Made by a program: the position numbers and the translations under genes | Assembly: GCA_949297665.1 (NCBI GenBank) | Contig: CASFTO010000023.1 | Location: forward strand, 1-55,721 | DNA length: 55,721 nucleotides | Direction: 5' to 3' | DNA from: an uncultured Alphaproteobacteria bacterium | Lineage (GTDB): Bacteria; Pseudomonadota; Alphaproteobacteria; RF32; CAG-239 | Shown here: positions 9,546 to 55,721 of the stretch, in pieces | Position numbering within the stretch: the stretch's first letter is position 1 | Layout: each line of letters begins with the position of its first letter | Notes under the pieces: generated by a model | Databases searched by the model: none | Told to the model about the DNA's origin: nothing | The model's input: the letters and a program-made list of their open reading frames with translations, nothing else

Positions 9546-10328
9546 ATGAAAAAAATCAGTATCGCCTGCATAATTGCCACAATCATAACCACCAGTTGCT
9601 CCTTATTTAATCTGAACAAGGAAGAAAAATTTGTAAATCCGGTCTTTTATGAAAAAATGATTTCGGCATCGCATTCAAATTATGAAGTGCAATTAACCCC
9701 AACAAGTATCTATATGGTCTCCAGTAAAGACTTTAAGTATAATTATACATGCAAACTCATTAACAACCAAATGGATACAGTTAGTTTGGAATGTTTTAAA
9801 TATAACTACAAAAATGAAAAAGAAGAGACACAAGTTTTCACATATACTCTAAAACCTTGCAACGAAGAAAACATGTGTCTGGATAAGGGAGGCTGGCTCG
9901 TTTATCAAAAAATCAGACCTTACCAATATTTTGATGAAACAATTACCTATATAATCCCTTCTAAGTCTAAAGATGCCCCCAAAGATAAATTTGTAAATCC
10001 ATTGTTTTATAAAAAATTATCTCCAAGATCCAAAAACACAAGACCAACCTTTTTAACACCGACTTCTGTTACCACGATAGATTTATATGGAAAAGAGGAC
10101 GTTGGAAGATGTAAAATGCTGGAAAACACACCTATGTTTGTGACATTAGATTGTACTTTTTATATTGAAGAAACTAAAGAAACATATAGTCAAATTGTTC
10201 GCTATGTATTAAGAGGTTGCGATGAGCAAAAAGAATATTGCTTTGGCGGTAAATGGTTTGTACTGGAAAATGCCTCCGGAGATAGTATTGGAACACTCGT
10301 CATAGATAAAAAAGATATGGGGCAGTAA
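9546..10328 (+). CDS. Lipoprotein with two tandem ~120 aa Cys-rich domains; candidate lysozyme-inhibitor/immunity protein
   Basis: Lipobox ITTSC. Two collinear repeats KFVNPxFYxK...LTPTS...CK...LxC...YxLxxC...C...W. The lipoprotein call is supported; the function is inference. Confidence 0.75.
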   Translation: MKKISIACIIATIITTSCSLFNLNKEEKFVNPVFYEKMISASHSNYEVQLTPTSIYMVSSKDFKYNYTCKLINNQMDTVSLECFKYNYKNEKEETQVFTYTLKPCNEENMCLDKGGWLVYQKIRPYQYFDETITYIIPSKSKDAPKDKFVNPLFYKKLSPRSKNTRPTFLTPTSVTTIDLYGKEDVGRCKMLENTPMFVTLDCTFYIEETKETYSQIVRYVLRGCDEQKEYCFGGKWFVLENASGDSIGTLVIDKKDMGQ

Positions 10329-10346: not shown

Positions 10347-11258
10347 TTAATACCAATGTTTAATATTTTGGATTTGCTGTTTAGCCCAATCATTTCGGTC
10401 TTTTCCAACATCTTTTCGGTTAACATTATAAATTATTCCGTCTTTACCATACAAGTTCTTTTCCGCAATAGCTTTTCTAAGCTTAGGCCATTCATCTGCA
10501 GATACATTACCTGTATTGAATTTAATATCGAGCAAAACATTTTGTAATTCCTGAGGAAAAGAATCAAATTCCGGAAATTCCCTATGAAGATATGCAAGAT
10601 CATCTCTCAGATGATAATGAAGTAATTTATTTATTTCTTCATCTAAAATTCTCAGAGGAGATTTATCTGCATAAAAAGAAGCTTTCATATTATTTTTTTT
10701 GAGCAAATTTCCATCTTTATCAACATTTTTCTTCCCTTCTGAAGTTATGGCATGAAAATAATTAAATGCTGCTTTTTTTTCTTCTTCTGTTGCCGCTCGC
10801 CCATCAACTTGCCAATTTATTTTTTGGAATTGCTCCCATCTATCAATATTTGCACCAACACCTGTAGTTTTATTCCACGTCGTATCAATATAGATGTAAT
10901 CAAGAGGTCTTTCCATATTACGCAATACAGGGATCATTCTGTCAATTAAAGCATTGCCGGTTTTAACATTGGCTGATAAATTCGCATCAATGGCATGGTT
11001 AACTTTATCATTTTTGGCGTATTGTGTGCCTTGGGATGATAAAAGCGAATTTCCGGTTTCTTGTGTTAAGACTTTCTGAGCCAGCCCATTTTGATTAGCC
11101 ATCATATAAGCCATTGAATCTCGAATATCTGCATTTTTTTCAATTCCCTCTAATGAGCCATATTTTCGCAACAATCTTTTCAATTGCAATTCATTATCTG
11201 CATCCGCCAATCGCTGATGCTCAAGAATATCATCATCAAAATTATAAGAAAAGGTCAT
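10347..11258 (-). CDS. T4-lysozyme-like (GH24-type) muramidase with an N-terminal extension
   Basis: E-RPLDYIYI-D-TTWNK-T-TGVG matches the E-x8-D-x5-T triad spacing of T4 lysozyme. The later FDSFPQELQNVLLDIKFNTG...WPKLRKAI segment is typical of this fold. Start taken at MTFSY (AAGGA upstream); the frame is open to 11402. Confidence 0.8.
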   Translation of the reverse strand: MTFSYNFDDDILEHQRLADADNELQLKRLLRKYGSLEGIEKNADIRDSMAYMMANQNGLAQKVLTQETGNSLLSSQGTQYAKNDKVNHAIDANLSANVKTGNALIDRMIPVLRNMERPLDYIYIDTTWNKTTGVGANIDRWEQFQKINWQVDGRAATEEEKKAAFNYFHAITSEGKKNVDKDGNLLKKNNMKASFYADKSPLRILDEEINKLLHYHLRDDLAYLHREFPEFDSFPQELQNVLLDIKFNTGNVSADEWPKLRKAIAEKNLYGKDGIIYNVNRKDVGKDRNDWAKQQIQNIKHWY

Positions 11259-11288
11259 GTTTTTTCCTTTCATAACAAAAATTAAAAC

Positions 11289-11321
11289 AAAAAAGAGCCA
11301 CGAAAAAAAACGTCGTAGCCC
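11289..11321 (-). terminator. Terminator-like hairpin 2 in the muramidase leader
   Basis: Minus strand GGGCTACGA...TCGTGGCTC 9-bp stem (two G-U pairs) plus T6. Confidence 0.5.
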
Positions 11322-11360
11322 TTGGTTAAAAATAGGATTATCCATTTGTAAATTGCCCAC

Positions 11361-11384
11361 AAAAAAAGCCCTCAAACCGAGAGC
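11361..11384 (-). terminator. Terminator-like hairpin 1 in the muramidase leader
   Basis: Minus strand GCTCTC-GGTTT-GAGGGC plus T7. Confidence 0.5.
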
Positions 11385-11426
11385 CAAATTTGGAATATAC
11401 AAACACTTTAACCTATTATGACAACA

Positions 11427-11454
11427 TTTATACCTCCCCCGACAAGTATGTCAA
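11427..11454 (-). promoter_or_regulatory. Near-consensus sigma70 promoter facing the muramidase gene
   Basis: Minus strand TTGACA-N16-TATAAA. Confidence 0.65.
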
Positions 11455-11611
11455 TACATCTGAAAATAAAACAAAAAATATTTTTGCAAAGTAAAAATAA
11501 GTATACGCGGTTTCAATAAGGAATAAAAACAATTTTATTAAAAGAAATTTTTTAACTCTATCTTAAATATCTATCATATAGCCTAATTGCGGAATGTCAG
11601 ACAAGCATTCT

Positions 11612-11635
11612 GAGGTTTGAAAGCCTCTTATACAG
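11612..11635 (+). promoter_or_regulatory. Putative antisense-target hairpin (a1/b1-like elements)
   Basis: Hairpin GAGGTTTGAAAGCCTC exposes TTGAAA. TTGAAAGC (11617-11624) and TATACAG (11629-11635) are exact complements of two segments of the downstream structured RNA. Confidence 0.55.
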
Positions 11636-11680
11636 CGTCTATATGTAAAGACGAAAGATTTGCATGCCCTTCAGTCTAAA

Positions 11681-11754
11681 GACTGGAAGGCGGTAAAATA
11701 AACCTATGCGGTGAATATACCGCACTATCTGTATATAGCTTTCAACTTCCAGTC
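11681..11754 (+). ncRNA. C4/CI-like structured small RNA (phage-immunity-type antisense RNA architecture), 74 nt
   Basis: Closing stem GACTGGAAG/CTTCCAGTC (9 bp). Inner hairpins TGCGGT-GAATAT-ACCGCA and CTAT-CTGTAT-ATAG. Loop CTGTATA and bulge GCTTTCAA are complementary to the upstream elements in the correct antiparallel order. Confidence 0.55.
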
Positions 11755-11778
11755 GCTTCGTCAAGCGACTTTTTCTTT
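11751..11778 (+). terminator. Leader terminator (attenuator) ~30 nt upstream of the OMP start
   Basis: AGTCGCTT-CGTC-AAGCGACT 8-bp stem followed by TTTTCTTT. Confidence 0.75.
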
Positions 11779-11806
11779 AACTATTTAGAAAAGAAGGAAG
11801 TTTGAT

Positions 11807-12643
11807 ATGAAAAAATATTTAATGTTAGCAGGTATATTCACCGTCTTAGCCGGAGATGCGCAATCAGCTGGTTGGTATTATGAAGATGATGGATATAACC
11901 AATATGAAGCAAGACAACAATACAATAATCAAGATTATTATTCTAAACAACCACGCTATCAACAACTACCATCATCTGCGAGCAGAAGGTACCAAGAACG
12001 CCAATACACACGTTCACAAAATATGAATACCTACCAGACCACAGAAACAAATAAAATCCGCCCCTATATTGGATTAGATGTGATGACCACAACTATGGAT
12101 TTTGGAACAGGAAGCCAAGATTGGAAAATGAAAAATGGACCAGCAGAATATTATGAAGATAAAAATATTTCAGCAAATTTTGTAGCAGGATTAAAATTTA
12201 ACCCAAATTTTGGTTTAGAAGCTTTTTATCAACAATCAAGTGAAGAAGAGCAAAATGAGAGATGGAGTGAACCAATCCCATCAGAGGTGAATATGGATTT
12301 TGATGCAACAAATTATTTGAGTTTCAAGGCATATGGTATAGATACTCAGTGGTATGCACCTATTACACAAGAATTTGAGATATTGGCTTCACTAGGTTTG
12401 GCACAGTATGATTTTGAAGCAAGAGATAAATTAACGGCAAAGGTAGCGTCCGTAGGATTTACACACACCTCGAAAAATAATAAAGATTTTGATTCACTCG
12501 GCATTCGTTTAGGAATTGGTGGACAATACAATATTACAGACCATATAGCTTTAAGAGCAATGGCTCGCTATGTTCACATGACAGATGATGAATATATTAA
12601 AAGTATGACTGAATTATCCTTAGGTCTTCGTTATATGTTTTAA
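11807..12643 (+). CDS. Outer-membrane beta-barrel protein (OmpA-like/porin family, probably 8-stranded) with a Tyr/Gln-rich N-terminal segment
   Basis: Sec signal peptide, alternating beta-strand patterns (RPYIGLDV, FGLEAFY, LGIGGQYNITDHIALRAMARY) and the C-terminal Phe signature LGLRYMF. Confidence 0.85.
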   Translation: MKKYLMLAGIFTVLAGDAQSAGWYYEDDGYNQYEARQQYNNQDYYSKQPRYQQLPSSASRRYQERQYTRSQNMNTYQTTETNKIRPYIGLDVMTTTMDFGTGSQDWKMKNGPAEYYEDKNISANFVAGLKFNPNFGLEAFYQQSSEEEQNERWSEPIPSEVNMDFDATNYLSFKAYGIDTQWYAPITQEFEILASLGLAQYDFEARDKLTAKVASVGFTHTSKNNKDFDSLGIRLGIGGQYNITDHIALRAMARYVHMTDDEYIKSMTELSLGLRYMF

Positions 12644-26814: not shown

Positions 26815-26880
26815 TGTTAATAGTTGCTTTTTGACTTGCAAAATAGCAGGATATAATCCATAAAGAATAAGTGATAAATG

Positions 26881-26964
26881 AAGGGTGCGGGGTTGTTTTG
26901 CTGCCAACTCGGTCAGGTTCGGAAGGAAGCAGCCGTAACAGTTAAAACAAGGTCTGTTACCCTT
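26881..26964 (+). ncRNA. ffs: Signal recognition particle 4.5S RNA
   Basis: GCCAACTCGGTCAGGTTCGGAAGGAAGCAGCC domain-IV motif closed by AAGGGT/ACCCTT. Sits directly upstream of dnaX, with TATAAT at 26852. Ends are approximate. Confidence 0.93.
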
Positions 26965-26983
26965 CTCCTCAAAAGATAAAAAA

Positions 26984-54968: not shown

Positions 54969-55721
54969 TAACATGAGAGTTTGATCCTGGCTCAGAACGA
55001 ACGCTGGCGGCAGGCTTAACACATGCAAGTTGAACGGGATTTGCTTATAGCTTGCTAGAAGCAATGAGAGTAGCGCACTGGTGAGTAACACGTGGGAACA
55101 TACCTTGAAGTGGGGGACAACAGTTGGAAACGACTGCTAATACCGCATAATCCCTGAGGGGGAAAGATTTATCGCTTTAAGATTGGCCCGCGGAAGATTA
55201 GGTAGTTGGTGGGGTAAAGGCCTACCAAGCCGACGATCTATAGCTGGTCTGAGAGGACGAACAGCCACATTGGAACTGAGACACGGTCCAGACTCCTACG
55301 GGAGGCAGCAGTGAGGAATATTGGGCAATGGAGGAAACTCTGACCCAGCCATGCCGCGTGAGTGAAGAAGGTTTTCGAATTGTAAAGCTCTTTCGGATGG
55401 GACGATGATGACGGTACCATCTAAAGAAGCCCCGGCAAACTTCGTGCCAGCAGCCGCGGTAATACGAAGGGGGCGAGCGTTGTTCGGAATTACTGGGCGT
55501 AAAGGGTGTGTAGGCGGATAAGTAAGATAGTGGTGAAATACCTGAGCTCAACTTAGGAATTGCCATTATAACTATAGATCTAGAGTGATAGAGAGGATAT
55601 TGGAATACCCAGTGTAGAGGTGAAATTCGTAGATATTGGGTAGAACACCAGTGGCGAAGGCGAGTATCTGGCTATCAACTGACGCTGAGGCACGAAAGCA
55701 TGGGGATCAAACAGGATTAGA
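54969..55721 (+). rRNA. rrs: 16S rRNA, 5' part (truncated by the window end)
   Basis: AGAGTTTGATCCTGGCTCAG at 54976, GAACGAACGCTGGCGGC (alphaproteobacterial type), ACTCCTACGGGAGGCAGCAG, GTGCCAGCAGCCGCGGTAA and CAAACAGGATTAGA. Confidence 0.99.

Follow-up and report, generated by a model that had tools for sequence, protein, structure and literature searches.

Known C4-type antisense RNAs are either phage immunity repressors or chromosomal small RNAs (sRNAs) of unknown role. A preliminary description of one stretch of DNA from an uncultured alphaproteobacterium (55,721 nucleotides, hereafter the window) placed a phage module of the C4/CI type in the leader of a host outer-membrane protein (OMP) gene. 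The locus raises the question of whether this leader is built as a C4-type RNA and, if so, how such an RNA might control a gene for a surface protein. Every sequence and coordinate in that description proved correct when read against the window, and the leader was analysed through its surroundings, its further copies, its covariation, its predicted folds and its likeness to known RNAs.

Results

Genomic setting of the leader

The window is chromosomal, with a G+C content of about 36% and a housekeeping gene content, and the neighbours of the leader are mfd, recG, two open reading frames (ORFs) without a Pfam match, the OMP gene, an epimerase gene, an acyltransferase gene, recX and hsp33 (features are listed in Table 1). 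No phage genes were found near the leader, nor was an immunity context of the icd/ant/kilA type. The gene that follows does encode an OMP, as the preliminary description had it, but the module in front of it belongs to a chromosomal family and not to a phage. A search of the whole window with Rfam at gathering cut-offs returned the small SRP RNA and the 16S rRNA only. Orthologues of the OMP gene were aligned from five metagenome-assembled genomes (MAGs) of uncultured Alphaproteobacteria (L001–L005), and in this alignment the stretch from about 11552 to the ATG is near-invariant, though the proteins share only 64–94% identity.

Several other features lie 5' of the gene. In four of the five related MAGs (L002–L005) the contig ends 480–550 nt 5' of the OMP start codon, and these ends coincide with the start of a divergent gene at 10347–11258 on the minus strand; neither this gene nor that at 9546–10328 on the plus strand has a Pfam match. 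The region at 11253–11327 may differ from strain to strain, or be repeated. The minus strand carries a terminator-like hairpin (11367–11385, GGCTCTCGGTTTGAGGGCT followed by T7) in the interval that separates the upstream gene from the leader promoter. At 11441–11452 stands a palindrome, GACA-N4-TGTC, which has conserved arms and a variable spacer among L001–L005, and a promoter-like site on the minus strand (11600–11573) overlaps the -10 element of the leader. A structured minus-strand RNA running from 11566 to 11360 (~200 nt) was considered and rejected, its fold being no better than that of shuffled sequences (z = +0.6).

Table 1. Features of the leader, its gene and other RNA genes in the window
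Feature	Position	Strand	Evidence or remarks
Probable -10 hexamer TATCAT	11572–11577	+	Assigned by alignment with TATAAT of L002 and L004
P0 hairpin, 5' (target) domain	11592–11610	+	6/6 pairs changed on both sides; 91.7% of cells paired
Target hairpin, GAGG (11612–11615)/CCTC (11624–11627)	11612–11627	+	4/4 stem pairs covary; 99.3% paired
TTGAAAGC in target-hairpin loop	11617–11624	+	Pairs with 11738–11745; 7/7 pairs with double changes
Single-stranded target TATACAG	11629–11635	+	Complementary to hairpin 2 loop
P2 hairpin, 11636–11640/11649–11653	within 11636–11666	+	5/5 pairs covary
P2 loop pairing	11642–11648 with 11660–11666	+	5/7 pairs with double changes; 81.7% paired
Decoy ('anti-arm') CCTTCAGTC	11668–11676	+	Pairs with closing-stem 5' arm
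Competing hairpin CCTTCAGTC-TAAA-GACTGGAAGG	11668–11690	+	
C4-like three-way-junction RNA	11681–11754	+	Folds alone as cloverleaf; model R1, 92.3 bits
Closing stem GACTGGAAG/CTTCCAGTC	11681–11689/11746–11754	+	
Core hairpin 1	11690–11723	+	
Core hairpin 2	11725–11738	+	Loop CTGTATA at 11729–11735
Junction J3/1 GCTTTCAA	11738–11745	+	Single-stranded, from hairpin 2 to closing stem
Intrinsic terminator AGTCGCTT-CGTC-AAGCGACT, then TTTTT	11751–11770 (to 11779 with U tract)	+	8-bp stem
Ribosome-binding site AAGGAAGTT	11794–11802	+	GGAAGTT complementary to AACTTCC (11744–11750; junction and 3' arm)
OMP beta-barrel gene	11807–12643	+	278 aa, signal peptide; Pfam OMP_b-brl 4e-15, also Opacity and OmpA_membrane
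Bacterial small SRP RNA	26879–26969		Rfam, 54.6 bits
16S rRNA gene, first 753 nt	54969–55721		Rfam; truncated by window end

Organization of the leader

Transcription of the leader would probably start near 11584, judging from the hexamer TATCAT, which was absent from the output of a consensus promoter scan; other family members carry TTGCAT/TTGACA-N17-TATAAT about 10 nt 5' of the first hairpin. The leader as a whole (11590–11810) was predicted to fold at -72.1 kcal/mol (z = -6.7 against shuffles). The 74-nt piece, folded alone, gave the described cloverleaf at -24.3 kcal/mol (z = -4.1), so that the proposed fold held for the isolated piece, but it is not the predicted minimum-energy fold of the intact leader. 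TTGAAAGC lies in a hairpin loop, as had been proposed, namely that of GAGG/CCTC; GCTTTCAA, formerly taken for a bulge, is instead the single-stranded junction J3/1 between hairpin 2 and the closing stem. The arrangement of the two target sites is not a matter of chance: the ordered motif TTGAAAG-N(2-12)-TATACAG occurs once per strand and only here in the window, with 0.01 occurrences expected. Downstream of the targets, the segment at 11636–11666 probably forms an H-type pseudoknot or a local two-state element of alternative helices. The first four nucleotides of the terminator (AGTC) are the last four of the closing stem. A leader peptide was considered and rejected, as the sole short ORF (ATG at 11595, 8 codons) lacks conservation and falls within the P0 stem, which covaries.

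A multicopy RNA family in front of surface-protein genes

Further copies were sought with the 20-mer GACTGGAAGGCGGTAAAATA from the 5' end of the cloverleaf, which was found in 79 stretches of a genome collection. The carriers are almost all MAGs labelled, with the approximate taxonomy of such genomes, as gut or rumen Alphaproteobacteria, and often hold two to four copies per genome. Since the family was gathered by exact 20-mer, the lack of variation in the 5' arm and at the start of hairpin 1 is in part a product of the search. One match, in Serratia symbiotica (L018), was rejected as a chance occurrence inside coding sequence, about one being expected in 596 Gb. Neither exact nor relaxed patterns matched the family in viral contigs, and blastn against phage and plasmid records returned no family member. 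A covariance model built on the family core (R1) found a single copy in the window, where no second copy or further target-like site was present, and brought in six divergent copies from the fetched loci, of which some stand in tandem. These divergent copies have compensated closing stems (GGCAGGAAG/CTTCCTGCC and TGCTGGA/TCCAGCA) and matching target pairs of their own. At Rfam cut-offs, 18 family loci yielded tRNAs only, and searches in E-value mode returned nothing relevant in seven loci searched jointly or in the divergent copy at L038:2627–2706. The leader is thus a member of a multicopy RNA family, not previously described and not contained in Rfam, from uncultured gut Alphaproteobacteria. 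No paper tying a C4 antisense RNA to Alphaproteobacteria or to OMP leaders was found in the literature.

The genes downstream of 76 copies fall into consistent classes: 37 copies precede OMP beta-barrel genes, 14 precede type IV pilin genes and about 11 precede genes for lipoproteins or secreted proteins, with 14 unclear. The start codon usually lies 42–63 nt after the closing stem, a spacing too short to leave room for a separate promoter. Given the 14 copies in front of pilin-like genes, the same leader serves pili and OMPs. The pilin-type genes (e.g. at L013, L014, L016, L019 and L030) carry the prepilin motif GRSMVEMLGVLAIIGVL and match Pfam Bundlin/PilS.

Some copies depart from the simple arrangement of one leader and one gene. 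Complete modules stand in tandem at L015:2352–2811 and L037:285–730, where the family ribosome-binding site and ATGAAATG come after the first module and lead directly into the next promoter (TTGACA-N17-TAGGAT); on sequence, the duplicated unit seems to span promoter to start codon, in the manner of a portable cassette. The copies at L045:5532–5761 and L047:3330–3559 have a degenerate terminator and no convincing gene downstream, and share their target sites with the OMP-linked copies L009 and L078 (two genomes). These two may be orphan regulators.

Covariation of the helices and variability of the recognition sites

In an alignment of 75 leaders the proposed helices were paired in 93.3% of cases, compared with about 40% in slid controls; changes on both sides were seen at 35 pairs. 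Compensatory changes, on whose presence the preliminary description had made its proposal depend, were found in every helix: P0, the target hairpin, P2, the P2-loop pairing, both core hairpins, the terminator stem and the junction pairing all covary. G-U pairs are frequent, and from them the plus strand can be identified as that of the RNA. Because of insertions and deletions, the loop pairing was scored copy by copy; most copies carry the exact complement of their own loop, usually 6–9 nt, at the same relative position. Matches to a copy's own site were longer than those to foreign sites, both for the loop (6.84 versus 4.94 nt) and for the junction (7.42 versus 4.67 nt), and the family thus bears out both of the short long-range pairings that had been read from one sequence. 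The divergent leader of L004 illustrates the point: TATACAG is replaced by CTAACAA, compensated by a change of CTGTATA to TTGTTAG, and TTGAAAGC by TTGAAACC, compensated by a change of GCTTTCAA to GGTTTCAA; hairpin 2 and the terminator hold other compensated changes. The internal loop of hairpin 1 is highly conserved.

The recognition sequences themselves are hypervariable. The family contains 53 different loop segments and 22 different junction segments. Paralogs of the same genome hardly ever have a loop site in common, and often have the same junction site. The pairs L055/L061 and L021/L054 are 99.4% identical outside the recognition patches and have four to seven complementary differences within each patch. 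Near-identical leaders that differ at complementary positions are as expected for a trans-acting specificity determinant, and the pattern fits a determinant that would act between molecules, unlike a merely structural helix. Comparable intermolecular specificity underlies the heteroimmunity of P1 and P7. At L044:308–537 the target TAGCATG does not match the copy's own loop, CTGTTGA; this leader looks like a chimera of two leader types, those of L054/L081 and L021/L039.

A chain of mutually exclusive helices

The closing stem is contested on both of its sides. A competitor for the 5' arm, proposed for the window from its own sequence, has a counterpart in all 61 distinct copies, in each of which at least 7 of the 10 nucleotides of the arm pair with the 28 nt upstream; the mean energy of this decoy is -10.0 kcal/mol, compared with -4.6 kcal/mol for shuffled upstream sequence. 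The overlap of closing stem and terminator is likewise a family trait, as 65 of 68 terminators take 3–4 nt of AGUC from the closing stem. With these nucleotides the terminator hairpin has an energy of -9.4 kcal/mol, and without them -3.7 kcal/mol, a loss of about 60%. The terminator loses its base when the closing stem forms, and the cloverleaf is therefore an antiterminator.

The 3' arm has a further partner. GGAAG precedes 73% of the family genes, as against 2% among 407 control ORFs of the family loci, and is complementary to (A)CUUCC in the 3' arm; this GGAAG(T):(A)CTTCC pairing is constant, and no covariation between ribosome-binding site and junction was found beyond it. Whenever the 5' arm is taken up by the decoy, the 3' arm is predicted to pair with GGAAG. 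The leader contains, in order, three helices or sets of helices of which each excludes the next: decoy with 5' arm, 5' arm with 3' arm, and 3' arm with terminator or ribosome-binding site.

Fold predictions, which are nearest-neighbour estimates that leave aside pseudoknots and kinetics, favour the first and the last of these pairings together. The cloverleaf was the predicted minimum-energy fold in none of 75 intact leaders, and all 75 were predicted to adopt a locked fold in which the two domains are paired, the decoy holds the 5' arm and the terminator is complete. By these estimates the locked fold beats the cloverleaf by a mean of 12.8 kcal/mol, and for RNAs that stop at the closing stem its lead is still 11.2 kcal/mol. 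Blocking both target sites, as an RNA acting in trans would, cut this lead to 4.5 kcal/mol, and 27 of 73 leaders came to 0–3 kcal/mol; over all such estimates the non-cloverleaf fold led by 4.5–7.8 kcal/mol. When the decoy was kept and the targets were blocked, the 3' arm was predicted to pair with GGAAG in all seven GGAAG leaders tested, compared with three of the seven when the targets were free.

Comparison with known RNAs

In the annotated record of phage P1 the order of parts is promoter P1c4, a1, b1, c4 (77 nt), a2, b2 and icd. The second of two hairpins presents a1 (TTGACAG) in its loop for pairing with J3/1 of c4; b1 is a single strand after a1 that pairs with the P3 loop, and c4 starts 66 nt after b1. 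A terminator-like hairpin follows b1, at the match to the isrK model. The leader has the same series of promoter, hairpin, target hairpin, single-stranded target and hairpin as the P1/P7 C4 systems (RF01695 and RF03163, clan CL00128), followed in P1 and the leader alike by a spacer of 45–66 nt and then by an RNA of 74–77 nt with helices P1, P2 and P3 and a 7-nt J3/1; in both, short recognition sequences set the specificity. Since the order of parts is the same in the window and in P1, the site labelled b1 in the preliminary description corresponds to a1 of P1, and its a1 to b1 of P1. The leader carries the three-way junction of P1, P2 and P3 with a single-stranded J3/1 of about 7 nt and the complementarity of P3 loop and J3/1 to upstream sites, one of them in a hairpin loop, by which RF01695 is recognized. 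It also has the two adjacent covarying hairpins of RF03163, with one target in the loop of the second and the other just 3', and the G+C-rich hairpin, U tract and mutually exclusive upstream helix of an intrinsic terminator or attenuator.

Differences from P1 are as clear. The closing stem is 9 bp long, compared with 17 in P1, and the P2 helix of the leader core is long, with internal loops; the context is neither that of a phage nor that of icd/ant. What the leader adds is the decoy, a terminator, found in almost all copies examined, and a ribosome-binding site whose sequence complements the 3' arm. The a2/b2 sites found at the downstream ribosome-binding site of P1 are lacking, which agrees with the preliminary failure to see a downstream copy of the targets: within 200 nt after the terminator, own and foreign matches were of equal length (5.74 versus 5.68 nt and 5.05 versus 5.10 nt). 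Nor was the duplex with the ribosome-binding site class-specific (-9.10 versus -8.73 kcal/mol).

The C4/CI-type reading is borne out by this likeness to P1 in architecture, but not by the models of the Rfam C4 clan. On 11300–11900 and at E <= 10, no match was found to C4 (RF01695, cut-off 45 bits; 68.8 bits for P1 c4), to c4-a1b1 (RF03163, cut-off 46.7 bits; 51 bits for P1) or to isrK (RF01394, cut-off 50 bits; 35 bits for P1), and R1 in turn misses P1 c4. Among Rfam families, sRNA-Xcc1 (RF02221) alone gave a notable score, 35.5 bits, which is below its cut-off of 53 (E = 1.7e-4 over 601 nt). All 87 model positions were covered, in the window copy only. Like the leader core, sRNA-Xcc1 has a closing stem of 9 bp, a long P2 interrupted by an internal loop, a P3 and a junction of 6–7 nt; unlike the leader, it has been described as a trans-acting integron-cassette RNA (Xanthomonas; also Xylella and phage APSE).

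The CI RNA of phage P4 (seqB) is processed from a leader, pairs with its own upstream site (seqA/seqC, t1) and controls termination. The switch proposed below for the leader resembles it in pairing with a site upstream in its own leader, and differs from it in that P4 uses one recognition sequence with two targets, serves prophage immunity and represses. Classical attenuators (1:2, 2:3, 3:4) share the chain of mutually exclusive helices; the leader differs from them in having no conserved leader peptide and, as proposed, an RNA–RNA interaction as its input. In Xylella, sRNA-Xcc1 matches adjoin C4 and isrK matches (PMC12189769), and in phage APSE a match precedes an ORF6N gene, settings that are in keeping with a fold of the C4 type for sRNA-Xcc1. 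According to Weinberg et al., an overlap with a terminator is sometimes seen in the 3' half of helix P1 of C4, which might act in cis; they also recorded a proposal that a1/b1 compete for C4 (PMC2864571 supplement). Many chromosomal C4-like sRNAs occur in Acinetobacter baumannii, and are thought to have bacterial targets (PMC5320573). Those of Group 1 are, like the leader family, chromosomal and multicopy; they differ from it in belonging to Gammaproteobacteria, in matching the C4 model and in not having been described as leaders of surface genes (PMC5320573).

Discussion

The reading that we favour, at a probability of roughly 0.38, is that the leader is a self-targeting switch of the C4 type with positive feedback, controlling both read-through and translation. 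One promoter would give a leader of about 195 nt composed of a 5' target domain, a C4-like domain, a terminator and a special ribosome-binding site. In an untouched transcript the two domains would pair and the decoy would hold the 5' arm of the closing stem; the free 3' arm would complete the terminator and, in RNAs read through, would mask GGAAG, so that the default state would be OFF. The C4-like cloverleaf would form only once the 5' domain had been cut off or otherwise occupied. In P1, RNase P cuts C4 from its precursor. A freed RNA of about 75–95 nt would expose its loop and junction and could pair in trans with both target sites on new transcripts, and would do so at its own locus only, because the loop sequence is locus-specific. 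Occupied target sites would shift the nascent C4 domain toward the cloverleaf, which would take the base of the terminator and free the ribosome-binding site, turning the surface-protein gene ON. Such positive feedback would possibly be bistable. The fold predictions count against this last step in two respects: blocked targets combined with an intact decoy are predicted to hide the ribosome-binding site more rather than less, and a non-cloverleaf fold is still predicted to be favoured when the targets are blocked. The known relatives of the leader, P1 C4 and P4 CI (with seqA and t1), moreover repress.

The repression by these relatives and the predicted masking of the ribosome-binding site (the rise from three to seven of seven leaders) speak for a module of opposite sign, in which a processed C4-like RNA binds the upstream sites of nascent leaders and represses the gene, as negative autoregulation, whether by stabilizing P2 or a terminator, by making the 3' arm available as a mask for that site or by triggering cleavage. 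We regard this version as possible, if unlikely. It would make sense of the position of P2, directly 3' of the single-stranded target and followed by a U-rich stretch in most copies, where P1 has a terminator-like hairpin at its isrK match; but that U-rich stretch is interrupted (UUAAAUUUU) and is explained by the P2-loop pairing, and an untouched leader that is already predicted to be locked and terminating leaves little to repress. It is quite unlikely, in our view, that the module is instead an independent sRNA gene with a constitutive terminator, whose upstream sites mask a precursor until processing, whose mature RNA acts on mRNAs elsewhere and beside which the surface gene merely happens to lie. 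The strong terminator with its U tract, the orphan or tandem copies with no clear gene (L045, L047, L015 and L037) and the bacterial targets supposed for the sRNAs of A. baumannii (PMC5320573) would agree with such a gene. The consistent classes of genes downstream (OMPs for 37 of 76 copies, pilins for 14 and lipoproteins for about 11), the fixed spacing with no room for a promoter, the family ribosome-binding site complementary to the 3' arm and the absence of a second target from the 55-kb window all argue against it.

That the leader acts purely in cis, as a thermometer or as an attenuator responding to a protein or ligand, with long-range helices that are structural and nothing acting in trans, we hold to be highly doubtful. 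Its topology is that of a classical 1:2/2:3/3:4 attenuator, and the conserved internal loop of hairpin 1 could bind a factor, but the four to seven complementary differences between near-identical leaders would be left unexplained, as would the divergence of the loop site among paralogs in the same cell. Invertons are common in front of surface genes of gut bacteria, and the site pairs of the leader are, at the level of DNA, inverted repeats about 100 bp apart in front of just such genes. We give next to no credence to their being the repeats of an inverton or mobile element, as the inner segment has the same orientation in all of about 80 copies, the many G-U pairs would be A-C on the other strand, the repeats are only 7–8 bp long and six further helices outside them covary.

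To judge from its sequence, the leader appears to be of C4-type design and to be new in its placement in front of surface-protein genes. The C4 design would here be a portable cassette of promoter, leader, terminator and ribosome-binding site, and with the family absent from Rfam such leaders presently go unannotated. Their exactly covarying recognition sequences constitute a natural set of orthogonal RNA–RNA pairs, and raise the question of the selective force behind new specificities at orthologous loci. The products served are surface molecules, visible to phages, to the host immune system and to neighbouring cells. The self-targeting switch could be taken further: each copy might be an RNA-only, self-specific and heritable ON/OFF switch for one surface protein, kept ON by its own C4-like RNA through positive feedback, with rapidly evolving 7-nt loops insulating up to four or more such switches per cell. 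We think it unlikely that all of this holds; if it did, it would amount to phase variation without any change in DNA, in an uncultured lineage of the gut.
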